A DNA stretch of 64,000 bases, from the NCBI GenBank assembly GCA_050248795.1, contig JBFWRS010000001.1, positions 11,587 through 75,586 of the forward strand. Direction: 5' to 3'. Below are positions 6,072-41,681 of this stretch, one piece after another (position 1 is the first letter of the stretch; each line of letters starts with the position of its first letter). The notes under the pieces were generated by a model that saw only the letters and a program-made list of their open reading frames with translations, had not been told where the DNA came from and did not search any database. Both the position numbers and the translations under genes were made by a program. Origin of the DNA: Burkholderiales bacterium (GTDB lineage: Bacteria; Pseudomonadota; Gammaproteobacteria; Burkholderiales; SG8-39).

Positions 6072-6467
6072 TCAGGGCTTGAACTGCGGATCCACCGGAA
6101 AGCGCAGGCCGTTGGCAAGGCGGTTGGTCTCGTTGGCGAGGCCCACCACAGCCATCAGCTCCATGAACATGGCGTCGCTCATGCCTTTCCTGCGCGCCGA
6201 GGCCGTGTGCGAATACGTGCAGTACTCGCAGTTGTTGGTCGCGCTTACCGCGACGTAGACCATCTCCTTCACCAGCGGGTCGAGCGCACCCGGCGCCATC
6301 ACCTGCCTGACGTGGTCCCAGGTGCGCCTCAGCATCGCCGGATCATTCGCCAGCGCCTTCCAGAAGTTGTTGACCCAGTCCGTGTTCCGGGCCTGCATGA
6401 TCTCGTCGTAGACCGCGCGCACTTCGGGCGGCGCCTCGGCATACTCCACCAGTTTCACCAGCGACAT
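6072..6467 (-). CDS. carboxymuconolactone decarboxylase (AhpD-like) family protein
   Basis: 131 aa with the family redox motif NNCEYCTYSH (CxxC...H). Confidence 0.85.
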   Translation of the reverse strand: MSLVKLVEYAEAPPEVRAVYDEIMQARNTDWVNNFWKALANDPAMLRRTWDHVRQVMAPGALDPLVKEMVYVAVSATNNCEYCTYSHTASARRKGMSDAMFMELMAVVGLANETNRLANGLRFPVDPQFKP

Positions 6468-25944: not shown

Positions 25945-27525
25945 GTGCCACCACCCGACAAGGAGTCTCCGATCGACCAACGTGCGCAGCAGCAGGTGGG
26001 CGACCCGCTCAAGCAGGCGGCGCTGTACAGGACGCTGCTCGGCGTTGACGATGCGCTGATCGGCGCGCACGACGAGGTCGCGATGCTGCAGCGGGTGTGC
26101 GACACCGCGTTCGCCGCGCAAGCCTTTGCCGCCGCATGGGCCAGCCTGAGCCATCCCGCCAGCGGCATCTTCGAGCCTGTCGCGTTCCCCCACAGCCTGG
26201 CGCCGTTCCGGCAACTGGTGCGCTCGCTGCTGCTGGCGTCGAACAGCCGCGACTACTCGCCGACGCGGCACGCGCTGGATTCCGGCGAGGCAAAGTTCGT
26301 GGAGCGCATGCGCGAACTGCCGTGGCCAGCGGCAGCGAAGCCGCTGATCGCGATGTTCGGCATTGGCGGCGTGGCTGCTCTGCCATTGCGCCGCAACGGC
26401 AAGGTCGTCGGCGCGCTCACGCTGTACGTGGCCGAGCCGGACTATTTCGATGCCGACACCCGCCGCGCGCTGGTCTCGATCTCGCGGCGCATCGGGTCCG
26501 CGCTGGACGCGATAGACGCCAACCGCCAGCTGCATCAGGCACTGGCCCGGTTGAGCGCCCGCGAAGCGCAGTTCCGCGCGCTGGTCGAGCAGTCGCTCAC
26601 CGGCATCTACATGATCGAGGGCGCGCGTTTCAGCTATGTGAATCCGCGCCTGTGCGAAATCCTCGGCTATTCCGCCGAAGCGCTGCTGCAGATGGGACCG
26701 CACGATGTGACACTGGAGGAAGACCGCGCGCTGGTGGACACCCAACTGCGCCGCAGGCAGGCGGGCGAACTGGCCGCAGCGCGCTACGAGTTCCGCGTCC
26801 GGCGGCCGAGCGGAGAGATCCGCCACGTCGGCGTGCACGGCTCGGTAGCGGAGATCGACGGACGCCGCGTGATCATCGGCGTGCTGCAGGACATCACCGC
26901 CCGGGTGCAGGCGGAACTACTCGCCAACACGCAGATCGCCCGGCTTGGAAACGCCATGCGCGGTACTGTCGGCGCAGTGTCCCGCATGGTCGAGCTGCGC
27001 GACCCGTACACCGCCGGCCACGAAAGCCGCGTCGCGGCCTTGATGCGCGAGATCGGCCGCACGATGGACTACGCACCGGACCGGCGAGAAGGACTGGAAG
27101 TGATCGGCGGCCTGCACGACATCGGCAAGATCGCGGTGCCCGCCGAGATCCTGGTCAAGCCTTCGAAGCTCACTGGCGCCGAGTTCGACCTGATCAGGGA
27201 GCATCCGCTCCGCGGCTACGAGATCCTCGCCGGCCTGGAGTTTCCCTGGCCGGCGGCGCAAGCAACGCTGCAGCACCACGAACGCATCGACGGCAGCGGC
27301 TACCCGCATGGCCTGAAGGGGACAGACATCCTGCCCGAGGCGCGCGTGCTGGCGGTCGCGGATACGGTCGAGGCAATGGCCTCGCACCGCCCATATCGCG
27401 CCGGCCTTGGCATCGACGCCGCACTCGCCGAGATCGAGCGCGGCCGCGGCAGCGCCTACGATGCAGATGTCGCCGATGCCTGTCTTGCGCTGTTCGGCGA
27501 GAAGGGCTATCGACTCCCGGCCTGA
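25945..27525 (+). CDS. GAF-PAS-HD-GYP signalling protein (c-di-GMP phosphodiesterase type)
   Basis: PAS-like FRALVEQSLTGIYMIEG... then HD-GYP: HESRVAAL...GGLHDIGK...HHERIDGSGYPHGL. Confidence 0.8.
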   Translation: MPPPDKESPIDQRAQQQVGDPLKQAALYRTLLGVDDALIGAHDEVAMLQRVCDTAFAAQAFAAAWASLSHPASGIFEPVAFPHSLAPFRQLVRSLLLASNSRDYSPTRHALDSGEAKFVERMRELPWPAAAKPLIAMFGIGGVAALPLRRNGKVVGALTLYVAEPDYFDADTRRALVSISRRIGSALDAIDANRQLHQALARLSAREAQFRALVEQSLTGIYMIEGARFSYVNPRLCEILGYSAEALLQMGPHDVTLEEDRALVDTQLRRRQAGELAAARYEFRVRRPSGEIRHVGVHGSVAEIDGRRVIIGVLQDITARVQAELLANTQIARLGNAMRGTVGAVSRMVELRDPYTAGHESRVAALMREIGRTMDYAPDRREGLEVIGGLHDIGKIAVPAEILVKPSKLTGAEFDLIREHPLRGYEILAGLEFPWPAAQATLQHHERIDGSGYPHGLKGTDILPEARVLAVADTVEAMASHRPYRAGLGIDAALAEIERGRGSAYDADVADACLALFGEKGYRLPA

Positions 27526-28922: not shown

Positions 28923-29822
28923 ATGTCGTTCGCGAAACCGGTGTTCATGAAGACCACAATATACGGCGAACTCGTGTCAACATCGCAGTCGAACATGACA
29001 CCGATCCGCGCTTGGCTGATGCAGGCCGCGCAGCGCATCGACGCAGCACTCGGCCCGGCGCGCGTCGCGCGCAGCGCGCTTCCGCCGGTGATGAATGACC
29101 CGGGCAAGGAAGGCGAGTTCTGCGCCGTGCAGCTCGACGACGGCAGCGTCGGCCTCGCGTTCGCGATCCTGCAGGACACGCTCCCGACGCTGCACGCGCG
29201 CCTGCCGCCCGGCGTGCTCGCCGGACGCTCCGCGCTGGAGCTCGTGCGCGGCTACGCGTCCGGCGACCTCGCCGCCCGCACCATCGGCCTCGCAACCATC
29301 AACGCCCTCGCCCGCCGCCTCTACGACCGCGCAGGCTTCGTCCCCGGGGATTCCGCCGACTCCTTCTCCGTCACGCTCGCCCGTGGCGACCGCCTCGGCC
29401 TCATCGGGCACTTCCGGCCGCTCATCAGGGAGGCCCGCACCCTCGGCATCCCGGTCACGGTCCTGGAGCTGCGCGCCGAACTCGTCCGCGAAGAACCCGG
29501 GCTCTCGGTCACCCTCGACCCCGCGCGGCTCGCCGCCTGCAACAAGATCGTCTCGACCAGCACCCTCCTGCTCAACGACAGCTTCGAAGCGGTGCGCGTG
29601 CTCTGGAAGAACGCCCAGGAGGTGGCCATCGTCGGCCCTTCCGCCTGCGGCCCGCCCGATCCGCTGTTCGCCGCCGGCGTCTCGGCCGTCGGAACTACCT
29701 GGGTCAGCAATGCCGAAGCGCTTCTCGCGCACGTCGTCGCGGGCGAGAAGTGGGGCGACTCGGCCCGGAAAGTGACTTTCACGCCAGCACGGTATCCGGG
29801 GCTGGACGCGCTGCTCCGCTAG
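28923..29822 (+). CDS. DUF364/DUF4213-type Rossmann-like protein (putative chelatase-like)
   Basis: Real 3' part of the 1241-aa track ORF. Contains LGLIGHFRPL...VTVLELR...IVSTSTLLLN...AIVGPSA...G..W. Start uncertain: 28923, 28947 or later. Confidence 0.55.
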   Translation: MSFAKPVFMKTTIYGELVSTSQSNMTPIRAWLMQAAQRIDAALGPARVARSALPPVMNDPGKEGEFCAVQLDDGSVGLAFAILQDTLPTLHARLPPGVLAGRSALELVRGYASGDLAARTIGLATINALARRLYDRAGFVPGDSADSFSVTLARGDRLGLIGHFRPLIREARTLGIPVTVLELRAELVREEPGLSVTLDPARLAACNKIVSTSTLLLNDSFEAVRVLWKNAQEVAIVGPSACGPPDPLFAAGVSAVGTTWVSNAEALLAHVVAGEKWGDSARKVTFTPARYPGLDALLR

Positions 29823-30039
29823 CTGCGCAAGCATCGGGGCGCGTCTCCCGGGAGATGCCCGCGGGTTCGCGCTACACGCTGGCGGCATCGCATGCATGCC
29901 GCATGGCGGTTCCCGCGCCTGCGGCGCCACCAGCGCATCGCCCGCATACAGGCGCGACTCGAGATTGGCGACGGTCCTGCCCCGATTCCGAGTGGCGAGG
30001 CATTAGAATGCAACGCCCGAACCTTGGAGGAGACCGTCC

Positions 30040-30594
30040 ATGCCAAGAGTCAGCGAAATCGACGACGACGCCGGGGACCTGGTTCTCGCCGAGTTGTTCG
30101 CCAGGGAGCGCGCTTCCTTTGGCGAACTGCTCAACTCGACGCGCGTGATGGCCCATTGCCCGGCGATCTTGCGCGCCGCCAAGCAGCTCGGCGCCGCTAT
30201 CGCGGAATCGGGCCGGCTGCCGAAGGGCCTGGTTGCGCTGGTGTCGCTGCGCGTCGCGGCGATCAACGGCTGCCCGTTCTGAGTCGACATCAACTCCGTC
30301 CGTGTGGCGGAGGTCGAGGGCGGCGCGGCGAAGCTCGCCGAGCTCCCCGCGTGGCGCGAGAGCGGTGCGTTCAGCGAGCTCGAGCGAGCGGCGCTCGAGT
30401 GCGCCGAGCGCATGACCTATACCGGCCAGCGGGTCGACGACGCGCTGTTCGCGCGCTTGCGAGCGCTGCTGGACGACCCGGAGATCGTCGAGCTGGCGGC
30501 CGCAATCGCGCTGGAGAATTTCCGCAGCAAGCTCAACTCCGCGCTAGGCGTGGAGGCGCAGGGCTTTTGCCTGCTGCCGCGGCGCGAGCGATGA
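30040..30594 (+). CDS. AhpD/carboxymuconolactone-decarboxylase family protein, probable selenoprotein (Sec at 30280-30282)
   Basis: Track ORFs 30040..30282 and 30304..30594 are in the same frame. The TGA replaces the second Cys of the family CxxC (INGCPF-TGA-VDIN), and the downstream part (AWRESGAFSELERAALECAERMT) continues the same fold. Confidence 0.7.
30284..30317 (+). promoter_or_regulatory. SECIS-like hairpin immediately 3' of the in-frame UGA
   Basis: UCGAC (30284-88) pairs with GUCGA (30313-17), followed by a 5-nt bulge. CUCCGUC (30294-300) pairs with GGCGGAG (30306-12). The loop CGUGU (30301-05) contains GU and starts 19 nt after the UGA. Confidence 0.6.
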
Positions 30595-31456
30595 GCCCGC
30601 GGAGGTGGCCGCTGTCCTGCGGCTGCTTGGCGACATGCCGCAGCCCGGTCAGCGCGGGCATGAGCAGCTTAGGATCGGCGTCCTCCGCGTAGACTGCGTA
30701 GGCTGGATAAAGGAACTCCGGGGCGCCCCGCACGAGCTTCAGCTTGCCCGTACGCAGATAGGGCGCGGCGGCGTGCTGGCGGAAGTAGCCTGAGCCGCCC
30801 GCGCGCAGGATGTACTGCAGGCCGAGCGGACCGAGATCCACGTAGGTGCCGGGACTGGAGAGTTCGGGGTAGGTGAGATTGTGCTGCGTGGCGAACTCCG
30901 GGCCCCAGTCCACGTAGATGTAGTCGCCGCCACGCACCGCCTTGCCGCGGGTGGTGACGAGGAGCAGCTTCTCTTTCATCAGCAGCTCCACTTTCAACCC
31001 GGGCCGCTGCTGCGGCGTGTACAGCACGCCGATATCGACGATGCCTGCCCCGACCTGGTCCATGAGCTGCTGCGGCAGCGCGACGCGGGCGCGCACGGCG
31101 AGCTCGGGCACCGAGCGCCTCATCCACACCATCCACTCGAGCAGCAGGGGATCCCACAGGCTGAGCTCGCCAGCCACTGCGATGACCGCGCGCCGCCCGT
31201 GCGGCACCGCGACCTGGTGGCGCGCGCGCTCCCAGAGCTGCACCAGCGAGGGGGCAAAGCGCAGGAACTCCTCGCCCGCCGCGGTGAGCGCAGCGCCGGA
31301 CTTGCTGCGCTCGAACAGCTTGCGCCCGAGAAGCGATTCGAGCTTGCGCACGCGCACGCTCACGGCAGTCTGCGTGACGTGCAGGCGCTCTGCGGCGCGG
31401 ATGAAGCTGCCGCTGCCGACGATCTCCAGAAAGGTGCGGGCGAGGGCGATCTCCAT
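30533..31456 (-). CDS. LysR-family transcriptional regulator
   Basis: N-terminal HTH MEIALARTFLEIVGSGSFIRAAERLHVTQTAVSVRVRKLE plus a LysR substrate-binding domain. Divergent from sodB. Confidence 0.9.
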   Translation of the reverse strand: MEIALARTFLEIVGSGSFIRAAERLHVTQTAVSVRVRKLESLLGRKLFERSKSGAALTAAGEEFLRFAPSLVQLWERARHQVAVPHGRRAVIAVAGELSLWDPLLLEWMVWMRRSVPELAVRARVALPQQLMDQVGAGIVDIGVLYTPQQRPGLKVELLMKEKLLLVTTRGKAVRGGDYIYVDWGPEFATQHNLTYPELSSPGTYVDLGPLGLQYILRAGGSGYFRQHAAAPYLRTGKLKLVRGAPEFLYPAYAVYAEDADPKLLMPALTGLRHVAKQPQDSGHLRGLIARAAAAGKSPAPPRLARS

Positions 31457-31579
31457 GCTGGTCCTCCGTTCGGACTTATATAACCGATAGTTTACTTAAA
31501 CAAGATTTAGTTTCGTTTTACTTCACAAAGCACTGAGGCCATGATCGACGGCACTAGAACCGACGCGCCTGGAGAGCCC

Positions 31580-32212
31580 ATGCCACTGACCTTGCCTTCA
31601 CTGCCCTACGAGCACGCCGCACTCGCGCCGTTCATGTCGGACGCAACGCTCAAGCTGCACCACGGCGTGCACCACGCCGGCTACGTGGATCGGGTGAACG
31701 CGCTCGCCCGCGGCACCGCGCTGGCGGACTTGCCGTTGCGCTCGATCGTCGAGCGCAGCGCGCGCGACCCGGCGGCGCGTGGCCTGTTCAACAGCGCGGC
31801 GCAGGCCTGGAATCACGACTTCTTCTGGCGCTCGCTGCGCCCCGCCGGGGAGCGGTCAGCGGTGCCTGCGCGCCTGGCGGCGCGCATCGCGAAGGATTTC
31901 GGCGGCCAGGAGCGTCTGATCGCGCTGCTCAAGAGCACGGCGCTCTCGGTCTTCGGCAGCGGCTGGGTGTGGCTGATCGAGCGCGACGGGCGCCTGCGCG
32001 TCGAAGCGACGGCGAACGCCGACGGCCCGATCGTGTCCGGCGGCGTACCCGGCCTCGTGATCGACGTCTGGGAGCACGCGTACTACCTCGACTACCAGGC
32101 TCGGCGCGCGGACTACGTCTCCGCGGTGATCGAGCACCTGCTCGACTGGGATTTCGCCGAGCGCAACCTGTTCGCCAACCAGCGGGAACGAGGCCATGAG
32201 GCCAACGTGTGA
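31580..32212 (+). CDS. sodB: Fe/Mn superoxide dismutase
   Basis: LPSLPYEHAALAPFMS...LHHGVHHAGYV...WNHDFFW...DVWEHAYYLDYQ. ATG at 31580. Confidence 0.9.
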   Translation: MPLTLPSLPYEHAALAPFMSDATLKLHHGVHHAGYVDRVNALARGTALADLPLRSIVERSARDPAARGLFNSAAQAWNHDFFWRSLRPAGERSAVPARLAARIAKDFGGQERLIALLKSTALSVFGSGWVWLIERDGRLRVEATANADGPIVSGGVPGLVIDVWEHAYYLDYQARRADYVSAVIEHLLDWDFAERNLFANQRERGHEANV

Positions 32213-32586
32213 AGCGTGGCTCGCCCAAGCGGGTACAGGTCAAGTCCGTCGCCGTGCGCGCGGAACCGCAGGACGGCATGCGGGTCCTGGTGGAGCGGCG
32301 CTGGCCGCGCGGGGCGTACCGACAGGGTGCAGCCATCGACCTGTGGCTGCGGGATGCCGCGCCGAGCCCCGCGCTGTCCCTGTGGTACCGCCGCTACCCG
32401 CGACGCTGGAAGCGCTTCCGCCATTGCTATTGGGCGGAGCTCGCGAGGCGGCCGCGCATCGTGCACCTGCTCGAGGATCTGCGGCGGCGCACTCCCGTGA
32501 CACTGCTATTTGGCGCGCAGGACGATTCGCGCAACCACGCGGAACTGCTGCGCGAGTTCATTGACCGTAAAGGAGATCTGCCATGA
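32209..32586 (+). CDS. DUF488 family protein
   Basis: VLVERRWPRG...DLWLRDAAPSPAL..W......W..F...Y..EL......LLFGA.D...NHA. GTGA overlap with the sodB stop. Confidence 0.7.
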   Translation: MKRGSPKRVQVKSVAVRAEPQDGMRVLVERRWPRGAYRQGAAIDLWLRDAAPSPALSLWYRRYPRRWKRFRHCYWAELARRPRIVHLLEDLRRRTPVTLLFGAQDDSRNHAELLREFIDRKGDLP

Positions 32587-33281
32587 AAGCCAGAGACATC
32601 ATGACTTCGCCGGTGATCACCGTCGCGCCCGAGACCACTGTGAAAGAGGTCGCGACGCTGCTCTACGAGTGCCGCATCGGCGCGCTGCCAGTCGTGCAGG
32701 ACGGAAGCGTGGTCGGGATCGTGAGCGAGTCAGACCTGCTACGCCGCCACGAGATCGGCACCGATCGCTTCGAGCGTGCCGGATCGTGGTGGCTGTGCCT
32801 GTTCGGGACGGACGGGTCCCTGCATGACTACGTGCGCTCCCATGCGCGCTTCGCGCGCGACGTGATGACACGCGGGGTGGTGACCGTCACGCCCGATACG
32901 TCGCTCGCGGAGACCGCGCAGTTGCTCGAAGGCCGCAGGATTGGTCGCGTGCCTGTCGTGGACGCCGGCAAGCTCATCGGCATTGTGAGCCGCGCAAACC
33001 TGGTCCAGGCGCTCGCGGCGCGCGCGCCCGCGCCCGCCGAGCCGCAAGCCGTGGATGACGAGAGCATCCGGCGCGCACTGCTCGAGGAGCTGGAGCGTCA
33101 GACGTGGTGGCGCATCGATCGCGCGGCCGTGCTGGTCACCAACGGCGTGGTGCAATTCCAGGGCATGGTTGACACCGACGCCGGCCGTCCGGCCGCGCGC
33201 GTGGCGGCCGAGAATATCCCCGGCGTGCGCGCCGTGGAGGATCACCGTTTCCTCAGCTCGAACGCGCCCACGATGACATGA
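32583..33281 (+). CDS. CBS-pair plus BON domain protein
   Basis: Two CBS motifs (ARDIMTSPVITV...GALPVV, ARDVMTRGVVTV...GRVPVV) and a C-terminal BON-like VVQFQGMVD...AAENIPGVRAVED. ATGA overlap upstream. Confidence 0.8.
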   Translation: MKARDIMTSPVITVAPETTVKEVATLLYECRIGALPVVQDGSVVGIVSESDLLRRHEIGTDRFERAGSWWLCLFGTDGSLHDYVRSHARFARDVMTRGVVTVTPDTSLAETAQLLEGRRIGRVPVVDAGKLIGIVSRANLVQALAARAPAPAEPQAVDDESIRRALLEELERQTWWRIDRAAVLVTNGVVQFQGMVDTDAGRPAARVAAENIPGVRAVEDHRFLSSNAPTMT

Positions 33282-33324
33282 GCGCGAGCGGCCTTTCCTC
33301 AACGTCATCCCCAAGGAGACAGTC

Positions 33325-33897
33325 ATGCATTCGTTCCTGACCATCGCCGATCCCCACGCAGCGCGCAGGATGTTTCTTGCGCGCTCGGGCCTCGTCCTTT
33401 CGGGCGCGGCCGTCGCGCTGCTCGCCGGCCGCGACGCGCTCGCCGCGCGCAGCGGCGCCGGCCGCGCCGACGACGTGCGAATCCTGAACACCGCGCTCGG
33501 CGCGGAGCACGAGGCGGTGGCCGCCTACCAGCTCGGCGCCGAGAGCGGCCTGCTGGAGAAGCCGGCGCTCTCGCTCGCGCTGCAATTCCAGGGCCACCAC
33601 AAGGAGCACGTCGAGCTGCTCGCGCAGACCGTGCGCAAGCTCGGCGGCAGCGCGGTGTCGGCGCGCTCCAAGTACGATTTCCCCGCGCACCAGCTGAAGA
33701 CCCAGGCCGATGTGCTGCGCTTCGCGGCGCAGCTCGAGCGCGGCGCGGTAAGCGCGTACCTCGGCGCGGTTCCCCTGTTCGGCAACCGCGACCTCGCCAA
33801 GGCCGCGGCGAGCATCCTCGGCGACGAAGCGATGCACTGGGCGGTCCTGCGCAACGCGCTAGGCGAGGACCCTGTTCCGGTCGCGTTCGTGTCGTGA
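33325..33897 (+). CDS. Tat-signal ferritin-like domain protein
   Basis: Twin-arginine-like ARRMFLARSGLVLSGAAVALLAG, then ferritin-like helices LNTALGAEHEAVAAY, QGHHKEHV, ERGAVSAY and GDEAMHWAVL. Confidence 0.65.
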   Translation: MHSFLTIADPHAARRMFLARSGLVLSGAAVALLAGRDALAARSGAGRADDVRILNTALGAEHEAVAAYQLGAESGLLEKPALSLALQFQGHHKEHVELLAQTVRKLGGSAVSARSKYDFPAHQLKTQADVLRFAAQLERGAVSAYLGAVPLFGNRDLAKAAASILGDEAMHWAVLRNALGEDPVPVAFVS

Positions 33898-34277
33898 CTG
33901 CGGCGCCGCTTGCGCTCGCCGTGGTCCTGGCGCTCGCCGCGCTGCCCGCGGCGGGGGACGAGGCGCGCGGCGAGCAGGTGTACGCGCGCTGCCTCGCCTG
34001 CCACGCGCTCGCCTATGACCGGGTCGGGCCGCGCCACTGCGGCCTGATCGGCCGGCGCGCCGGCACGGTCCCGGGGTTCGCGTACTCGGAGGCGATGCGG
34101 CAGTCGGGAATCGTGTGGAGCGCGAAGACGATGGATCGCTTCCTGGCCGATCCGTCGGGTGTGGTACCCGGTACGACGATGACCTACGCGGGAGTCCCGG
34201 ATGCACGCGATCGCGCCGATCTGATCGCGTACCTTGCGCGCGCGGGTCGTTCCCCCGAATGCAGCGCGTCGCGATGA
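33894..34277 (+). CDS. class I c-type cytochrome
   Basis: Signal peptide, heme site CLACH, distal Met region GTTMTY. GTGA overlap with the ferritin-like gene. Confidence 0.8.
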   Translation: MTAAPLALAVVLALAALPAAGDEARGEQVYARCLACHALAYDRVGPRHCGLIGRRAGTVPGFAYSEAMRQSGIVWSAKTMDRFLADPSGVVPGTTMTYAGVPDARDRADLIAYLARAGRSPECSASR

Positions 34278-34289
34278 TGGTGCCGTGAC

Positions 34290-34643
34290 GTGATCCACAT
34301 CAAGCGCACCTACGAGCCGCGGGAGAAATCTGACGGGCGCCGCATTCTGGTGGAGCGGCTGTGGCCGCGCGGCATGAGGAAGGAGGCCCTTGCGGCCGAC
34401 GCCTGGGCGAAGGACGTCGCTCCCAGCACCAAGCTGCGCAAGTGGTTCGGGCACCGGGGGGAGCGATGGGCCGAGTTCAGGCGCCGATACCGTACCGAGC
34501 TGGACACGGTTCCCGCCGCGTGGGCGCCGATTCTGGAGGCGGCTGCGCGGGGACGCGTGACGCTGCTCTACAGCGCGCGCGATACCGTTCACAATTGCGC
34601 CGTCGTGCTGCAGGAGTACCTCGGCGAAAGGGCGAAGCGATGA
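34290..34643 (+). CDS. DUF488 family protein (second copy)
   Basis: GTG start. IHIKRTYEP....DG.RILVERLWPRG...AWAKDVAPS..LRKWF.H....W.EF...Y..EL. Confidence 0.75.
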   Translation: MIHIKRTYEPREKSDGRRILVERLWPRGMRKEALAADAWAKDVAPSTKLRKWFGHRGERWAEFRRRYRTELDTVPAAWAPILEAAARGRVTLLYSARDTVHNCAVVLQEYLGERAKR

Positions 34644-34951
34644 CCACGCACCCGGCTGACGTTTCGATCGTCGGCGGCGCACCGAAGCCTGCTGCCCCGA
34701 GCCTTCTCGAGAAGGTTCTGCGCAGCCTCTCCGTGATCACCATGCTGCTGACCGTGCCGCAGGTGCTGGCGGTGTGGGTCGGACCGCATCCCGGCGGCGT
34801 CTCGCTCGTATCCTGGGTCGCGTACCTGGTCGCCGCGTGCCTGTGGTTCGTCTACGGGCTGCAGAGGCGCGACAAGACGATCTACCTCGCCTGCGTCGGC
34901 TGGGTCGTGCTGGATGCGGCGATCGTGGCCGGCGTGATCGTGCGCACCTGA
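34640..34951 (+). CDS. small 3-TM membrane protein, PQ-loop/SemiSWEET-like
   Basis: 103 aa with three hydrophobic segments. The first carries the motif LLTVPQVLAVW. ATGA overlap upstream. Confidence 0.45.
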   Translation: MTTHPADVSIVGGAPKPAAPSLLEKVLRSLSVITMLLTVPQVLAVWVGPHPGGVSLVSWVAYLVAACLWFVYGLQRRDKTIYLACVGWVVLDAAIVAGVIVRT

Positions 34952-34991
34952 AACCGGCGCAACTTCTGGCTTGGCGCGAGGTCATTCAAGT

Positions 34992-35663
34992 ATGGTAAGT
35001 GCTTCTATCGCCTTAGAGGAAGACCCGTCGCGCACTCCAGTGATGCTGTCGCTCCCCGTGCGTGCGCGGCTGCTCGACGCCCTCCTAGCGGGAGGAATCG
35101 GCCTGGCGCACGAATGCGGCGGCAAGCTGGCCTGCGCGACCTGCAGGGTCATCGTGCGCGAAGGCAGCGCCCATCTGGAGCCGGCGAGCGAAGACGAGCT
35201 GGACATGCTGGACGCCGCGGGCGTTCTGGCTCCGCAAGCACGCCTCGCATGCCAGGCGATCGGCCTTGGCGGCGACGTGGTGATCGAGATCCCGCTGATC
35301 GAAGCGGCGCCGCCCGTCGCGATCGCCGCGGGACCCGCGCTTCCCGTTGCGCTCACCGAGCACGCGGCGAGGCACATCGCGTCGCAGCTCGCGAGCCGGC
35401 CGGCTGGGGCCGCCGTGCGCCTCGGCGTCTCGCCCGCGGGCTGCTCGGGTTTCCGCTACCGCCTCGAGTTCGCCGACGCGATCCGCGAGAACGACGTGGT
35501 CTTCGAGAGCCGCGGCGTGCGCATCGCGGTCGAGTCCTCCAGCCTGCCGCACGTGCAGGGGACGAGGCTCGACCTGGTGCGGGAAGGGCTCGCCCGGCGC
35601 CTTCGCTTCGACAACCCGAACGTGCGCAGCACCTGCGGGTGCGGCGAGAGCTTCGGGGTATGA
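34992..35663 (+). CDS. fusion protein: [2Fe-2S] ferredoxin (Fdx/adrenodoxin type) N-terminal domain + IscA/HesB A-type carrier C-terminal domain
   Basis: The N-terminal half has ECGGKLACATCRV...RLACQ (4 Cys ligand pattern of Fdx-type ferredoxins). The C-terminal half has LTEHAARHI...GCSGFRY...CGCGESFGV. Compare iscA and fdx in the same window. Start is ATG 34992 or TTG 34971. Confidence 0.75.
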   Translation: MVSASIALEEDPSRTPVMLSLPVRARLLDALLAGGIGLAHECGGKLACATCRVIVREGSAHLEPASEDELDMLDAAGVLAPQARLACQAIGLGGDVVIEIPLIEAAPPVAIAAGPALPVALTEHAARHIASQLASRPAGAAVRLGVSPAGCSGFRYRLEFADAIRENDVVFESRGVRIAVESSSLPHVQGTRLDLVREGLARRLRFDNPNVRSTCGCGESFGV

Positions 35664-35664
35664 C

Positions 35665-35877
35665 ATGCAGGACGTCGAGCGCTTTCGCATCGGATTCCTC
35701 GTGACGCGCGACGGCGAGGCGGCGGCTGCGGCCTGGGTGCGGCGCACGCTCGCGATCTATCGGCGCGCGGTTCTCGACCCGAAGCATTTCGCGAGCAAGC
35801 CCGACTACCGGCACCTGTTCCTCGCCTCCTGCGCGGAGTTCAGGCGCTGGCTCGCCAAGCGGACGCTCCCGTGCTGA
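35665..35877 (+). CDS. small hypothetical protein
   Basis: 70 aa, starting 1 nt after the fusion-gene stop. Real 3' part of track ORF 35347..35877. No family recognised. Confidence 0.4.
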   Translation: MQDVERFRIGFLVTRDGEAAAAAWVRRTLAIYRRAVLDPKHFASKPDYRHLFLASCAEFRRWLAKRTLPC

Positions 35878-36026
35878 GCCAGGACGAAAAGCTGGACGAG
35901 GCGCTGAAGGACACGTTTCCTGCGAGCGACGCCTTCTACCTCGCACCGGATGACACGCGCGCAGCCGTGAGCGGGCAAGCGAGTACCCCGGGGCCATGCA
36001 TCGCACCCGCCGACCAATCAGGATGA
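35871..36026 (+). CDS. very small hypothetical protein (51 aa) with DEALKDTFPASDA motif
   Basis: Not in the track because it is under 60 aa. The GTG start overlaps the upstream stop by 7 nt. The motif resembles small conserved proteobacterial proteins that I recall only loosely. Confidence 0.3.
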   Translation: MLSQDEKLDEALKDTFPASDAFYLAPDDTRAAVSGQASTPGPCIAPADQSG

Positions 36027-36121
36027 AGCAGTCGCCGGACTCCGGTTTTGACGTAGCTCAATGTACCCTCGCGTTCACGGGATACCATTGCGAAACAGCG
36101 TTTTCAGCATAGGAGGATCCC

Positions 36122-36574
36122 GTGACAGTCGCCATCCCGCTCCCTCTCAAGAAGGAGCACAACGAACTCCACGAGGAGCTCGTACGTGCTACGAAGGAGC
36201 CCGGCGCGGTAGGCGAGGCCGCGAAGAAGGTCGCGCGCCTCCTCCATCCCCACTTCGTATCCGAGGAAGAATATGCCCTTCCGCCGCTCGGGCTGCTGGC
36301 GGCCGTCGCGCGCGGCGAGACGCCGGCTGAAGCCGGGCAAGGGCTTGCTATGGCCGAACGGCTTCGCAAGGAGTTGCCGCGGATGCTCCAGGAACACGGC
36401 GCAATCGTCGAGGCGCTCGCGGAGTTGAGCGAGGCCGCGCAGCGCGAGAGCAAAGCCTGGGTCGTGCGCTTCGCGGAGAATCTCACGCTGCATGCCCAGA
36501 CCGAGGAGGAAGTCCTCTACCCAGCGACGCTGGTTCTCGGAGAGATCCTTCGGCGCCGAGGCGTCAAAGGCTGA
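36122..36574 (+). CDS. hemerythrin-like (HHE-type) domain protein
   Basis: LKKEHNELHEEL...LLHPHFVSEEEYALPPLG...LQEHGAIVEAL...LHAQTEEEVLYPA. Confidence 0.6.
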   Translation: MTVAIPLPLKKEHNELHEELVRATKEPGAVGEAAKKVARLLHPHFVSEEEYALPPLGLLAAVARGETPAEAGQGLAMAERLRKELPRMLQEHGAIVEALAELSEAAQRESKAWVVRFAENLTLHAQTEEEVLYPATLVLGEILRRRGVKG

Positions 36575-36877
36575 CTGCGTCTTTCGGTGCCCCGGCAGGC
36601 GCCGCGGTGTCACATCGTTCCGTCGGGTGATCGCGGGGTCAGGTCTCGATTCACGGGCGAGGAGCCCGGCAAGCTGTGTCGCCTACCGCATACGCCGCCT
36701 GGCGCTCGGCCGCCCGCTCGCGCGCCGACCTGCGCGTGGTGGCGACAAACGAAGACCTACTTGCCCGTGGAGGAGCACCGGACACGCAATCCGGGCACCT
36801 GAGCGTCGCCACGCTCCCCCCCCGGGCGCATGTCGGCGATAATCGCCGAGGTCAGGGGCGTAGGCTTCCCCGGTGCA

Positions 36878-36937
36878 GGTGGCAGTGTAGGTCGTCGCGA
36901 CATCGAGCCTCCCGAGGTGTCGACCTACACCGCCACC
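36878..36937. repeat. 17-bp near-perfect inverted repeat with 26-nt spacer
   Basis: GGTGGCAGTGTAGGTCG (36878-36894) versus the reverse complement of CGACCTACACCGCCACC (36921-36937) matches at 16 of 17 positions. The right arm contains the 12-mer GACCTACACCGC. Confidence 0.85.
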
Positions 36938-37134
36938 GACACTGAAGAGCCCGACAAGGACTTGCAAGGTCTTGCCCAGACATGCCCGGATAAGCGGTCC
37001 GTGAAGGCCTGATTCCTTTGGAACGACAAAACCTCAAAGCGCAGAACGGCAGCGCCGACAAGACCCTGGGTCAGGTCGGAATCTCTGCCCACACTCCGGT
37101 GATGCAGCAGCGTTTTTTCCCTATGAGAATTGGC

Positions 37135-37170
37135 GTAGGTTTGGGTGACCTACACCGCGACCTACACCGC
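37135..37170. repeat. short hairpin plus perfect tandem 12-mer (GACCTACACCGC x2)
   Basis: GTAGGT (37135-40) N7 ACCTAC (37148-53), then GACCTACACCGC at 37147-37158 and again at 37159-37170. Confidence 0.85.
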
Positions 37171-37323
37171 TAATACTTGTCCAGTCTTGAACATCACGCG
37201 GTAACCATGCCTCCGCGCAGCGGCCGCAATCGGCCAGAAGCAGTCGTTCGCTGCCAAAATGATGCTTTGCGTCAGCACTTTCACCTCGTGCGCTTTGTTT
37301 ACGCAGGCCCGGATTTCGTAGGC

Positions 37324-39340
37324 CTACACCTTAAGTAGTTCATCGCATTGCCGGGTGATGTGTTCCGGCACTGAATCGAATCGGCGCGGATTCAACTGCA
37401 TGATGTATTCGTTCTCCACGTGGTAAGTCTCGTTGATATATTTCTTCACCAAGTCGTTATCCGGCACATCTGGTGTAACGATTCGGAATAGCTGCAACTT
37501 CTCATACCGATTCTTCGTCGCTTTATAGGCCGCGAGCATCTGTGCCTCATCTTTGACTCGGGCCAAGAGCTGAGCGTAGTCGAACGTCGACAACTTTTCC
37601 TTAATCCGCGCGGTGGCCTTTTCAATTTCCGCCGCCGTCATCGCTGTCCCGTCAGCTCTGGTCGGTAGTTCGCGCTTATGTAGAAGGCTCGACAGTAGGT
37701 TGTACTCATCTCCCTTATCGTCAGCGATTTCGTAGTTTCGCCGCAGATACACCAATTGGATGATCGGTTCGTTTACGGCCTGGAGATTCTCGCTGCAGAT
37801 CTGGCCGAACGACACGATATCGACCTTCGTAACAGGTAGCTCGGCTATGTGCCCGCTCTGCGCGGTTAGAAACGACGCGAGCGGCATGGGCTGGAAGCTG
37901 GCTCCGACGGTCTTGACTAGATCAATTACCGGCTCAATGTCGTGTGTAAGCATCAAGGCAGTGCGACCCTGAAAGCTATCCTTGCCTCGGAACAGCGTAG
38001 TCAAGATCGCGAATTTCTTGGTCTTATCAAATGACGAAATCGGATCGTCTAGAACGACTAAGTCGGGATTCTTCGTAAGGCAGTCGTACATGAAGAGGAC
38101 GAGCGCGAAAGCGTTCTTTTCGCCATAGCTGAGATGTGCCCCGCCGTTTTCTATGTAGTTGGCGAAATCCTCATGCTTGAGCTTCATCTTGTACGTCACA
38201 CCATCCAACTGAATATCGACCGCGTATCGGTAGCCAGCATTTCGCAGAAAGGTGTTTATCTCGGCTTTGTACTTGCCGATTGTTTTCTCAATAGCATGCT
38301 TCTGTTTGTTCACCTCCCCTTGTAGCTGTCCGGCCTTTGCCAGGACCTTATCCAAGCATTTGTTCACCTCATCCACTATCTTGCGGGTCGATTCCGCGTT
38401 GACGTGATGGAGAAGCGAGAGGTCTATTTTCATGTCGGAAAGAATCTGTTGAGCCTCTTGGACTTTCTCTATCTCACGCAAATAGAAGAACGAAATGCCC
38501 TTGGCACTACCTAGTTTTCCGCGCAGCGTATCCGTCTGGGCCTTGATCTCCTTCAGGTAGTTGATGGCCTCTGCGCTTGGTGCCTGGTGATGCCGCAAGA
38601 TCTCTTCTAGCTTCTTCAAAGTTTCGGCGCTGAAGTAAGTTCCTAAGCGCGAGACAATGCCCTGCAGCGCCACGAGATGTTCTATTGCTTTAGCGTCATA
38701 CTCGTCAGCGACGGCGAGGATGGTGTCCTTCTTATCGGCGGTAGGAGCCGTACAGAACGGACAGTTGTCCGACAGACCTAAGAACTCCTTACCTTGAAGC
38801 TGCCACTTAATCCACTGTATATTTGTGGGACTCTTAATGAAGTCGCTATAGCCCGTTAGCTTCTCTGGGACGTGCTCTAGTTTGTTTCCCTTAGCTAGTC
38901 CACGCGCAATTCGTCCGGACTTCGCATAGCCAGATTGCGACTTGCCAAAGCTCTCACTTAATGCAAGCAAGTCATTTATTACGCGATCAATGTCTTCATT
39001 CTTGCGAAAGATCTGCTGGATATCTTCAACCATTCCTTCGATCTCTTTCATCTTCGTGTCGTAATCGGCGTTGCGGACGAAGATGTCGAAGCTGTTCTTT
39101 ACGAGTTCATCCGGTTGAAAGACGAACTGGCTTATATAGCCTTCGTTGAACGTCGCCACCGACTTGAAGCCATCCGCCCCTTGTACTTGGGGTTGTTTGT
39201 CTGCTGATTTGTCGCCGCGAAATTTGAACGGCTGAAGTTCGGCCAGCTTCGCGCCTCCGCCTTCGGCGTTCAAGGCGATCGCTTTGGCAATCGTGCTCTT
39301 TCCCACACCATTCGGGCCGTACTTGACATTAAGTCGCCCC
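37324..39340 (-). pseudogene. 5'-truncated AAA_13-type (RloC/PrrC-like, Rad50-like) ABC ATPase, cut by the IS3 element
   Basis: In-frame codons GRLNVKYGPNGVGKST (Walker A) run directly into the IS end at 39341 with no N-terminus left. A CPFC zinc-hook-like motif sits in a long coiled-coil insert. Also present: LSYGEKNAF signature, LVVLDDPISSFD Walker B and MLTHD H-loop. GC is clearly lower than the surroundings. Confidence 0.75.
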
Positions 39341-39406
39341 TGAGCTGCCCGGCTTTTTCTGTACCAGGTTGAGTGTTGTAGTGTTCAACGTGGAAGGAGA
39401 AGGCGC

Positions 39407-39685
39407 ATGGCGAATAAAAAGTATAGCCCGGAGCAGGCGGTGGCGAGGCTTCGGCAGATCGAAGTGCTGCAGGCAGGGGGCAAGTCGATTCCGGCGGCAT
39501 GCAAGGAAGCGGGGATCACGGATGTCACGTACTACCGCTGGAGGAAGGAGTACGGCGGGCTGAAGGTGGACCAGGCCAGGAAGTTGAAGGACCTGGAGCG
39601 CGAGAACCAGCGGCTTAAAAAGTTGGTGGCGGACCTGTCGCTGGAGAAGGCGATCCTGAAGGACGTGGCCGAGGGAAACTTCTGA
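39407..39685 (+). CDS. IS3 transposase OrfA (HTH + leucine zipper)
   Basis: 92 aa with ...[57 protein letters not shown]. Confidence 0.9.
39673..39679 (+). promoter_or_regulatory. -1 programmed ribosomal frameshift heptamer G GGA AAC
   Basis: X XXY YYZ pattern in the orfA frame, 4 nt before the orfA stop. The orfB frame is open from here. Confidence 0.6.
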
Positions 39686-40545
39686 GCCCCGAGCGGCGGC
39701 GCAAAGCCGTCGCGCATGCTCGGGGCAAGTACGGTGTGTCGGAGAGGAAGGCCTGTGCGGTGCTCGCGCAGCCCAGAGGCACGCAGCGCTACGTGCCGAC
39801 GGTGCGAGCCGACGAGGACCTGCTCACGCAGGCGATCGTGCGCTTGGCGTGCCAGTACGGGCGCTACGGCTACCGGATGGTCGCCGGGATGCTCAGGTAC
39901 GGCGGCTGGCGGGTGGGCGAGGAGCGGGTACACCGGATCTGGAGGAAGGAAGGGCTGAAGGTGCCCAGGAAGCAAAAGCCCCGCGGGCGGCTGTGGCTGA
40001 ACGATGGCAGCTGCATACGGCTGAGAGCCGAGCGGGCGAACCACGTGTGGAGCTACGACTTCGTGACGACCTGGACGCACGACGGGCGGGTGCTGAGGCT
40101 CTTGACGCTGATCGACGAGTACACGCGCGAGTGCCTGGCGATCATGGTGGCAAGGAGCATCGGCGCGCAGCAGGTGATCGAGCTGCTGGCCGAGGTGATG
40201 TTGCGCAGGGGAATCCCGGAACACATCCGCTCGGACAACGGGCCGGAGTTCACCGCCAAGGTGCTGCGGCAGTGGTTGGGGCAGATCGGCGCGAACACGC
40301 TTTACATCGCGCCGGGCAGCCCGTGGGAGAACGGCTACTGCGAGAGCTTCAACGGCACGCTGAGGGATGAGCTGCTGAACGGGGAGATCTTCTACAGCCT
40401 TAACGAGGCGCGGATCGTGATCGAGCGCTGGCGGCGCGAGTACAACGAGGTGAGGCCGCACAGCTCGCTGGGCTACAGGCCGCCGGCGCCGGCGGCCTGT
40501 AGCCACTACCCCGCTGCGCTCGATGAGCCGCAGGCTATGCAGTAA
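39673..40545 (+). CDS. IS3 transposase OrfB frame (DDE integrase core), expressed as an OrfAB fusion by -1 frameshift
   Basis: The -1 frame reads ...[30 protein letters not shown]... Later come WSYDFV (D), IRSDNGPEF (D) and [16 protein letters not shown] (E). Confidence 0.85.
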
Positions 40546-40583
40546 AGTATCAATGGGACTGGTACAAAAAACCTAGCAGTTCA

Positions 40584-40871
40584 GATCTGCAAGCTGCCCT
40601 TGCGCTCCGGGATGTAGACCTGCGACACCAGGTCGTCCGGCGCGACCTTGGCGCCGGTTGCTGCGAGCGTCGTGGCGAGCGCCGCCGGTCCGCATTGATA
40701 CTCCACCTGGGGGAAAAACGGCACCTCCGTAAGCTCGACGCGCTCCGGCAGGCCTTGCGGCAAGCCCTCGCGCAACTCCGCGGTTTGGGGCCAAAGGCTG
40801 GCGCAACCAGACACCGCGAGTGCACAGAGACAAGCAAAAGCAATTGTTCCGAGCCTGGATTTCATACGCAC
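40584..40871 (-). pseudogene. 3'-truncated C39-like (PA2778-family) cysteine peptidase lipoprotein, N-terminal 96 codons only
   Basis: Lipobox ALAVSGCAS and the peptidase motif VPFFPQVEYQCGPAALATTL. The reading frame ends in a TGA supplied by the IS right end (40581-83). Confidence 0.6.
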
Positions 40872-40932
40872 TCCGCTTTCGTCACTGCGAACAACCCGTC
40901 AACGCCGACCGGGCGGAAGAAAAGCTCGAGCA

Positions 40933-41286
40933 TCAGTTCACGGGCTCGATGCTCATTACGGTGAACGCCCCGCCGATGACATCAACGTGGAATCTCACCT
41001 TGTCGCCCGGCTTGACTCTCTCAATGAGGGCGGGATCCCCGACCTGGAAGCCCATCGTCATCGGCGGCATGCCGAGGTTGTGGAGCGGGCCGTGGCTGAT
41101 GGTGAGCGCATTGGAGCGCCTGTCCACCGACAGCACCACGCCGTCGGCAAGCGCGCTCGGGTCTCCCGCGTGGCTCGCGTGGCCGCCCGAAGGCGCTTCG
41201 CCCGGGGGCCTGGGGGCACTGGGAAGAGAAAACCAGGCGAAAGCGCCCACCGCCAGGACGAATGCCGCGACGAACAGCTTCTTCAT
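40933..41286 (-). CDS. CusF-like periplasmic copper-binding protein (copy 1)
   Basis: Signal peptide and HGPLHNLGMPPMTMGFQV...GDKVRF...GGAFTV. Confidence 0.8.
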   Translation of the reverse strand: MKKLFVAAFVLAVGAFAWFSLPSAPRPPGEAPSGGHASHAGDPSALADGVVLSVDRRSNALTISHGPLHNLGMPPMTMGFQVGDPALIERVKPGDKVRFHVDVIGGAFTVMSIEPVN

Positions 41287-41348
41287 CGGCGCTTGACCGG
41301 TACTTCTGCTGCTGCCAGTACGCGGCTGCTTCCTGCCATTGCCGCGCC

Positions 41349-41681
41349 CTACTTCGCCGGCTCGAGCTTGGTGATCGTGAACGCGCCGCCGACCTTGTCG
41401 GCCTGGAACTTCACCTTGTCGCCCGCCTTGACCTGGTCGAGCATCGCCGGGTCCTTGACCTGGAACACCATGGTCATGGGCGGCATGTCGAGGTTTGCGA
41501 GCGGGCCGTGCTTTATGGTGATCTTCTTGGCGTCCTTGTCGACCTTGCGCACCTCGCCTTCGCTCAGCGCAGCATCCGCCTGCGCCAAGGCAACGCCCGG
41601 CTTATGGTGCGCCTCCTCGGCATGGGCGAGCGGCGCGAGCAGCGCGCCGGCAAGCAGTACTGCGGAAAAGGTCTTCATCAT
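41349..41681 (-). CDS. CusF-like periplasmic copper-binding protein (copy 2)
   Basis: Signal peptide and HGPLANLDMPPMTMVFQV...GDKVKF...GGAFTI. ATGA overlap with the upstream Ldt stop. Confidence 0.8.
   Translation of the reverse strand: MMKTFSAVLLAGALLAPLAHAEEAHHKPGVALAQADAALSEGEVRKVDKDAKKITIKHGPLANLDMPPMTMVFQVKDPAMLDQVKAGDKVKFQADKVGGAFTITKLEPAK

Follow-up and report, generated by a model that had tools for sequence, protein, structure and literature searches.

A gene with a conserved in-frame UGA and a covarying downstream hairpin in a Burkholderiales bacterium: a probable AhpD-like CxxU selenoprotein that is split in current annotation

AhpD-like (COG2128) and CMD-domain selenoproteins carrying a CxxU motif have been known from the Sargasso Sea since 2005 (PMC1088965) and were described again, as 'AhpD-like 1', in Global Ocean Sampling (GOS) data in 2008 (PMC2398784), and they are included in current reviews and in BSepDB. 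We analyzed a 64,000-nucleotide stretch of DNA from a Burkholderiales bacterium (GenBank assembly GCA_050248795.1, contig JBFWRS010000001.1, positions 11,587 to 75,586 of the forward strand), referred to below as the window, in which the region 30040-30594 contains two open reading frames (ORFs) separated by a TGA codon. A sequence-only reading of this DNA had proposed that the ORFs are the halves of one selenoprotein gene, belonging to a family that is not new, and the two surveys cited above agree with the latter statement. In our analysis the region is most probably (roughly 90%) a single gene, encoding a predicted 183-residue CMD/AhpD-like thiol/selenol oxidoreductase of the COG2128/YciW-like branch, with selenocysteine (Sec, U) in the active site Cys78-Pro-Phe-Sec81. 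The predicted protein shares with the known AhpD-like CxxU selenoproteins the superfamily, the fold, the Sec at the second position of the CxxC motif, and a selenocysteine insertion sequence (SECIS) placed directly 3' of the UGA within the coding sequence; Cys-type homologs are widespread in both cases. The kind of protein has therefore been known since 2005, and the window gene is a further, mis-annotated case of it.

The ORFs 30040..30282 (80 amino acids, aa) and 30304..30594 (96 aa) lie in a common frame, as had been stated from the sequence, and the TGA at 30280-30282, in the context AAINGCPF-TGA-VDINS, is the sole stop codon between them. The Pfam CMD domain (PF02627) was found as a single domain running across this TGA (residues 41-123; 43.2 bits vs. 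a threshold of 23), in line with the earlier claim that the 3' half continues the same fold. The N-terminus, MPRV(S/R)EI, is conserved in the orthologs of the window gene, and orthologs in 80 species align to its product over residues 1-182. As had been predicted for default gene callers, the locus is split in GenBank, into an 80-aa hypothetical protein (MGE0873669.1) and a 96-aa CMD family protein (MGE0873668.1). Proteins identical to those of the window locus were also found in a second assembly. The window matches contig JBFWYE010000004.1 (GCA_050186705.1, a Burkholderiales metagenome-assembled genome, MAG) with 100% identity over 14,858 nt; this match stops at window position 26599.

Relatives of the gene were collected by a scan of GTDB (one genome per species) with the pattern EL[TA]AA[IV]ALE, a peptide of the Sec clade encoded 70 codons 3' of the TGA, which therefore selects for the subfamily and not for the TGA itself. 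The scan identified 189 relatives, the best 80 of which were fetched and, together with one metagenome contig from the Joint Genome Institute (JGI), made up a set of 81 loci; counts out of 82 given below comprise these loci and the window. The TGA was found at the identical codon, within the motif NGCPF-TGA-[VIM]DIN, in all 81 fetched loci (protein identity 58-76%). The hosts were MAGs of Burkholderiales and other Betaproteobacteria, Alphaproteobacteria (including Stellaceae and the isolates Enhydrobacter aerosaccus, Vineibacter terrae and Reyranella), Methylomirabilota/Rokubacteria, and members of a few other phyla. Three loci (L018, L044 and L047) were represented by a high-GC gene of proteobacterial type on contigs assigned to bins named 'Enterobacteriaceae', 'Klebsiella pneumoniae' and, for an archaeon, 'Nitrosotalea'; the contigs are probably mis-binned in their MAGs.

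A break at the same codon was observed in a database of 5.8 billion proteins, in which all matches at least 60% identical to the window product were fragments. About 80 of them (~101 aa, 70-78% identical) begin right after the TGA, with VDINS... or MDINS..., N-terminal fragments stop at ...NGCPF, and the JGI label given to the fragments is 'alkylhydroperoxidase family enzyme'. The full-length homologs were Cys-type proteins, 40-48% identical and reading C-x-F-C-V-D-I-N-S, with the exception of one Ser-type sequence at 53%. In the protein alignments (A1, A6) the second Cys of CxFC stands opposite the TGA in 42 full-length homologs; Cys51 of the structurally characterized P. aeruginosa protein PA0269 (PDB 2ijc/2o4d) likewise aligns with it, which confirms that the TGA occupies the position of the second redox Cys of the family. 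The Ser-type protein, P0001 (a single sequence and the nearest full-length relative), reads CPFS at the Sec/Cys position; this could reflect either a genuine change of TGA to TCA or an artefact of translation.

The sequence-only reading had also described a SECIS-like hairpin immediately after the TGA. Published constraints on bacterial SECIS elements (bSECIS; PMC13188914, Fig. 2A) are an apical loop of 3-9 nt, an upper stem of 4-16 bp, a G in the first two loop positions, a distance of 16-37 nt from the UGA, and a minimum free energy (MFE) of -7.5 kcal/mol or lower. The window hairpin lies within all of these limits, in agreement with the geometry originally proposed: it has a 5-nt loop whose second residue is G and whose third is U, a 7-bp stem, a spacing of 18 nt (the loop starts at the 19th nt past the UGA), and an MFE of -17.5 kcal/mol for the 45 nt 3' of the UGA, and RNAfold recovers the upper stem. 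The MFE folds of 67 of the 82 sequences likewise agree with every bSECIS constraint. The SECIS elements of E. coli fdhF and fdnG, the bacterial prototypes, are also stem-loops that lie within the ORF right after the UGA and have G and then U in a small apical loop; the window hairpin has no sequence resemblance to them, and in its family the stem occurs in two registers.

In a gapless DNA alignment of 63 columns (A3), the hairpin was found in the same place in all sequences, and two groups were distinguished according to register: group A, with 52 sequences including the window, and group B, with 30 sequences from Rokubacteria, Reyranella and Vineibacter. In group A, the stem formed by columns 27-33/39-45 (window 30294-30300/30306-30312) was paired in 96.2% of the cells, changes on both sides were present in four of its seven pairs, and the covariation score was matched by none of 500 shuffles. 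When the lower stem was included (12 pairs), pairing dropped from 86% to 34-54% with slid partners. Pair 30/42 changed from C-G to G-C through two synonymous substitutions (Ser TCC to TCG, Thr ACG to ACC), and a further doubly synonymous compensation linked Asn AAT/AAC with Glu GAA/GAG. Pair 27/45 changed from U-A to C-G, and GC, GU, CG and AU were all found at pair 31/41. Other compensations coincided with non-conservative changes of the protein on both arms (SVRVTE, SLRVRD, SYRVLE, SSRVLE). In group B, the stem GCAUCC/GGAUGC, shifted by 1 nt and closed by a CGGG or CGUG loop, was 99.4% paired, with one C-G to A-U swap.

The two registers, compared between loci L035, L040, L045 and others on the one side and L001-L034 on the other (A3 columns 27-45), have unrelated stems: UCCGUC/GACGGA closes a 5-nt loop and GCAUCC/GGAUGC one of 4 nt, and the encoded peptides are SVRVTE and ASRGMQ, respectively. 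RNAalifold applied to the pooled 82 sequences gave no structure, and the pooled pair counts were muddied, because the registers are offset by 1 nt; splitting the groups resolved this.

Loop residues G30302 and G30304 are invariant in all 82 sequences. The codon entropy of codons 82-92 was 0.52 bits, compared to 0.96 bits for the gene's other codons (p = 0.004), so that synonymous variation is suppressed; Val87 is always encoded by GTC and Val89 always by GTG. Genes of Cys-type homologs (n = 5) do not form a comparable hairpin, with energies of -0.3 to -5.2 kcal/mol compared to a mean of -8.6 kcal/mol for the same 24 nt. The lower stem was paired in only 71.5% (group A) and 67.6% (group B) of the cells, with little covariation, and RNAfold favours a different lower pairing in the window; it is a weakly supported, optional part of the element. 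All coordinates originally given for the hairpin (upper stem, loop and lower stem) hold; the conservation of the lower stem and of the 5-nt bulge proved to be weak. Rfam has no model for this hairpin: nothing relevant was found for the whole window at the gathering threshold, or for 30200-30400 at E-values up to 10. In at least 80 species, selection acts on the UGA, on the reading frame to either side of it, and on the hairpin.

Several observations weigh against a Sec-encoding function of the UGA, or narrow the evidence for it. SelA, SelB and SelD (tblastn with E. coli queries) and tRNA-Sec (ARAGORN) were not detected in the 64-kb window, and no selA, selB, selD or tRNA-Sec was detected in ~1.3 Mb of related loci, which, at 10 kb on each side of the gene, form an uninformative span. 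The folding energy of the window hairpin is unremarkable (-19.9 kcal/mol compared to a shuffle mean of -19.2 kcal/mol; z = -0.27; equalled by 69 of 200 shuffles), and its significance therefore rests only on the comparative data. The 45-nt MFE fold is an alternative structure or contains an interrupted stem in 15 of the 82 sequences. It should be noted that the scan pattern, being derived from the Sec clade, samples that subfamily and not the whole family, and that the negative control for the hairpin consists of five Cys-type DNA sequences only. As regards the missing machinery, Betaproteobacteria are a recognised Sec-decoding group (PMC1794560), and 63 selenoprotein genes have been predicted in one Methylomirabilota MAG (PMC13188914), which makes Sec machinery plausible in these lineages; we infer that the organism studied here possesses it.

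Among the alternatives, the one that survives best, at a low probability, is that the family is genuine but that Sec decoding has been lost in this MAG, leaving the gene as a recent dead relic. No Sec machinery was found in the window, and the loss of selenoproteins and of the Sec trait is common in bacteria (PMC1794560). Such a relic is at odds with the perfect state of the window SECIS, in which 7 of 7 pairs are formed, including a lineage-specific C-G at 27/45 and G-U at 32/40, with the ORF intact in two independent assemblies, and with the low ratio of nonsynonymous to synonymous substitution rates (dN/dS) between the window and its relatives (median 0.28 5' of the TGA and 0.34 3' of it).

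It is also quite improbable that the UGA is read through as an amino acid other than Sec, either by hairpin-stimulated insertion of a near-cognate Trp or Cys or as a reassigned codon. The inserted residue is not identifiable from sequence alone, and with the Sec machinery not located this explanation retains some ground. A TGA is, on the other hand, the ordinary terminator of the window gene and of 40 of the 81 orthologs, and the genetic code is therefore not reassigned. Moreover, the codon stands at the position of a redox Cys, the classic site of Cys/Sec exchange, the hairpin has SelB-type SECIS geometry with an invariant loop G, and the host lineages include the known Sec users named above.

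Decay of a CxxC-type CMD gene after a nonsense mutation, with the 3' half as a degenerating remnant, is very unlikely. The two GenBank fragments and the lack of Sec genes in the window would suit a pseudogene, but they have to be set against a TGA shared by all 81 loci (80 species), a dN/dS 3' of the TGA (~0.34) similar to that 5' of it, the absence of frameshifts, a conserved C-terminus and a covarying SECIS; the ORF following the TGA is 98-106 aa long in most relatives. The sequence-only reading had itself named the pattern that would speak for such decay, i.e. relatives with the TGA, no conserved hairpin and a decaying 3' half, and the opposite was found, with a dN/dS of ~0.3 in both halves. 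Just as unlikely is a pair of small genes, with an 80-aa protein followed by a ~100-aa protein re-initiated past the TGA by translational coupling: this is the model produced by gene callers, and GTG or ATG directly follows the TGA in 7 of the 82 sequences, but in the other 75 the codon is ATC, GTC (as in the window), ATT or ATA and the next residues, D-I-N, are invariant, which shows that the C-terminal half is not an independent gene, and, in addition, one CMD domain and one helix-turn-helix active-site unit cross the junction and the Cys-type homologs are single chains.

Table 1. Coordinates of the predicted selenoprotein gene and its elements within the window
Feature	Position	Strand	Remarks
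Complete selenoprotein coding sequence (predicted)	30040..30594	+	183 residues, Sec at 81, terminal TGA; CMD/AhpD-like fold; single frame
Shine-Dalgarno-like GGAGGAG	30026..30032	+	7 nt 5' of ATG 30040; read from sequence, putative function
Cys78 codon TGC	30271..30273	+	First residue of C-P-F-U; invariant in 82/82 Sec-type sequences and 44 full-length homologs
In-frame UGA, read as Sec81 (predicted)	30280..30282	+	TGA in 81/81 related loci; Cys in Cys-type homologs
Possible extended SECIS with lower stem	30284..30317	+	Lower stem 30284-30288/30313-30317; weak support
SECIS core (predicted)	30294..30312	+	7-bp upper stem 30294-30300/30306-30312, apical loop CGUGU 30301-30305
Cys177 codon, C-terminal Q-G-F-C	30568..30570	+	Q174, G175, F176 and C177 invariant in Sec-type and Cys-type homologs; putative redox role
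Genuine terminator TGA	30592..30594	+	No SECIS 3' of it; ortholog ends coincide

The solved structures nearest in sequence to the window protein are PA0269 (2ijc, 2o4d, 7xw1; E = 6e-13), Atu0492, D. radiodurans AhpD and Bmp8. As a structural stand-in for the window protein, an AlphaFold model of its 53% identical relative P0001, which has Ser at the Sec position, was used. The model is of high confidence (pLDDT 93, pTM 0.89) and all-helical, with the C-x-x-U position at the N-terminal end of helix 79-91; the PDB entries that match it best (PA0269, D. radiodurans AhpD and Bmp8) are all AhpD-like proteins. PA0269 is also the structure nearest to the model by fold (TM 0.9 on target; root-mean-square deviation 1.2 Å), with its CxxC at the same helix N-terminus and Cys where the window protein would have Sec. 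The window protein differs from it in ~40 additional N-terminal residues and in the QGFC tail. This tail is invariant in the subfamily (alignments A2, A6), and PA0269-type AhpD-like proteins are without it.

The active site of PA0269 is a relay of Glu36-Cys48-Tyr50-Cys51-His55, of which both Cys residues and the His have been reported as invariant across the family (PMC3141380). In the sequence alignment, the corresponding positions of the window protein are Ala66 (codon 30235-30237), Cys78, Phe80, Sec81 and Asn85 (codon 30292-30294), and Asn is almost invariant at position 85 among relatives of either type, Sec or Cys. The relay Glu and His are absent, so that the protein departs from the textbook AhpD. 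Judged by the strict definition of AhpD, the proton relay Glu...Cys-x-x-Cys-x-x-x-His, the label given in the sequence-only reading is correct at the level of the superfamily and incorrect in the narrow sense; furthermore, no peroxiredoxin (AhpC) gene adjoins the gene in the window. M. tuberculosis AhpD (1knc, 1gu9) shares the CMD superfamily and a CxxC-type site on a helix pair, but is distant (Foldseek E ~0.15, TM ~0.57) and has another topology; the window protein does not conserve the relay His and Glu, and its gene has no ahpC next to it. The window does encode a canonical paralog, at 6072-6467, with the motif NNCEYCTYSH (CxxC and His) and a Pfam CMD score of 61 bits; its coordinates and motif had been given correctly, and it lies on the minus strand and not on the plus strand as had been implied.

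With two published reference AhpD-like selenoproteins, MCB9421940.1 and an Occallatibacter protein (both from the supplements of PMC12013277), the window product shares 19-26% identity, with U aligned. The reference proteins retain His at U+4 (U-I-T-H-H and U-L-D-S-H), in contrast to Asn in the window clade (U-V-D-I-N), which also differs from them in having no relay Glu and in its invariant C-terminal QGFC. The best NCBIfam match was NF053654, 'GroundWater_YciW', a YciW-related (seleno)protein model that includes selenoproteins; the alignment of the window product with it runs from one end to the other (residues 1-175; 179 model positions). Against a cutoff of 310 bits, the window product scored 124.5 and four orthologs scored 131-149, and NF053654 represents a sibling clade of which the window gene is not a member. 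TIGR01926, which stands for the AhpD-like selenoprotein family in PMC13188914, gave 52.6 bits vs. a cutoff of 81.8, with the CxxU motif present. To judge by these comparisons, the clade is a divergent branch of predicted AhpD-like selenoproteins that falls below every NCBIfam cutoff.

By analogy with the established bacterial pathway, a ribosome arriving at the UGA at 30280-30282 would encounter the SelB-GTP-Sec-tRNA(Sec) complex held by the hairpin directly 3' of it, and Sec would be inserted at codon 81 in place of termination; the second UGA, at 30592, has no hairpin and would end translation. Sec81 would then lie in the first turn of the helix, as does the second Cys of AhpD-like CxxC proteins, and from its place in this fold it would be the likely nucleophile acting on a peroxide or on an oxidised partner thiol, with Cys78 resolving it as a selenenylsulfide. 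Cys177 is a candidate for a third residue with a redox role. Given the low pKa of a selenol, the missing relay would matter less. The Cys-type relatives also lack the relay, and the chemistry of the subfamily may therefore differ from AhpC recycling.

In 2006, FdhA was reported as the sole selenoprotein of Alpha- and Betaproteobacteria (PMC1794560). The clade is a non-FdhA addition for these two classes, which later surveys may already include; no selenoproteomes of Enhydrobacter, Reyranella or Vineibacter were found in the supplements searched. A broader interpretation, which we put forward tentatively and consider rather doubtful, is that the clade constitutes a distinct, uncodified selenoprotein subfamily of soil and groundwater Burkholderiales, Alphaproteobacteria and Methylomirabilota (at least 80 species), devoid of the Glu/His relay, possibly using a Cys78-Sec81-Cys177 relay for a chemistry other than AhpC recycling, and adding a selenoprotein other than FdhA to the Alpha- and Betaproteobacteria.

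The practical consequence concerns annotation. GenBank splits the gene in this genome as well as in dozens of related MAGs, and since no NCBIfam model reaches its cutoff for the clade, automated pipelines will continue to do so; the alignment and the SECIS of the clade would suffice to build an annotation model. Aerobic Proteobacteria of soil and groundwater, in whose classes the use of Sec had for long been believed confined to formate dehydrogenase, would gain with this clade a second kind of selenoprotein. The clade also supplies matched Sec-type and Cys-type homologs of a relay-less AhpD-like enzyme, and a tidy case of SECIS covariation inside a coding region. The knowledge of Sec decoding is left unchanged, and no new principle is involved.

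A scan for in-frame TGA codons with high GC content at third codon positions on both sides revealed no other candidate gene in the window. Other in-frame-TGA candidates from the fetched loci were rejected as noise, a recurrent '*CAVTPT' match being an antisense artefact. No sites were found in a promoter and terminator scan of 29700-30800.

At its 3' end, the selenoprotein gene overlaps a convergent LysR gene (30533..31456, minus strand) by 62 nt (30533-30594), as had been noted from the sequence, and the overlap is also present in the GenBank gene calls. The long C-terminal tail of LysR may be the over-extended member of the pair, which is suspected because the end of the selenoprotein matches that of its orthologs. 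The gene is flanked by one encoding a DUF364/DUF4213 protein, and the LysR gene is itself divergent from a gene for Fe/Mn superoxide dismutase. No conserved gene neighbour was identified in the related loci, where, apart from clusters overlapping the gene itself, each cluster was present in at most 15 of 81 loci. The neighbourhood in the window fits a role in redox stress without proving one. The region ~31541-41456, viewed through locus L089 (1-9877), resembles a redox and metal stress island, with genes for (i) the Fe/Mn superoxide dismutase, (ii) two DUF488 proteins, (iii) a CBS/BON protein, (iv) a ferritin-like DUF4439 protein, (v) a HesB-like Fe-S assembly protein, (vi) a hemerythrin-like protein, (vii) an AAA_13 protein, (viii) an rve-type transposase, and (ix) two CusF-like proteins.

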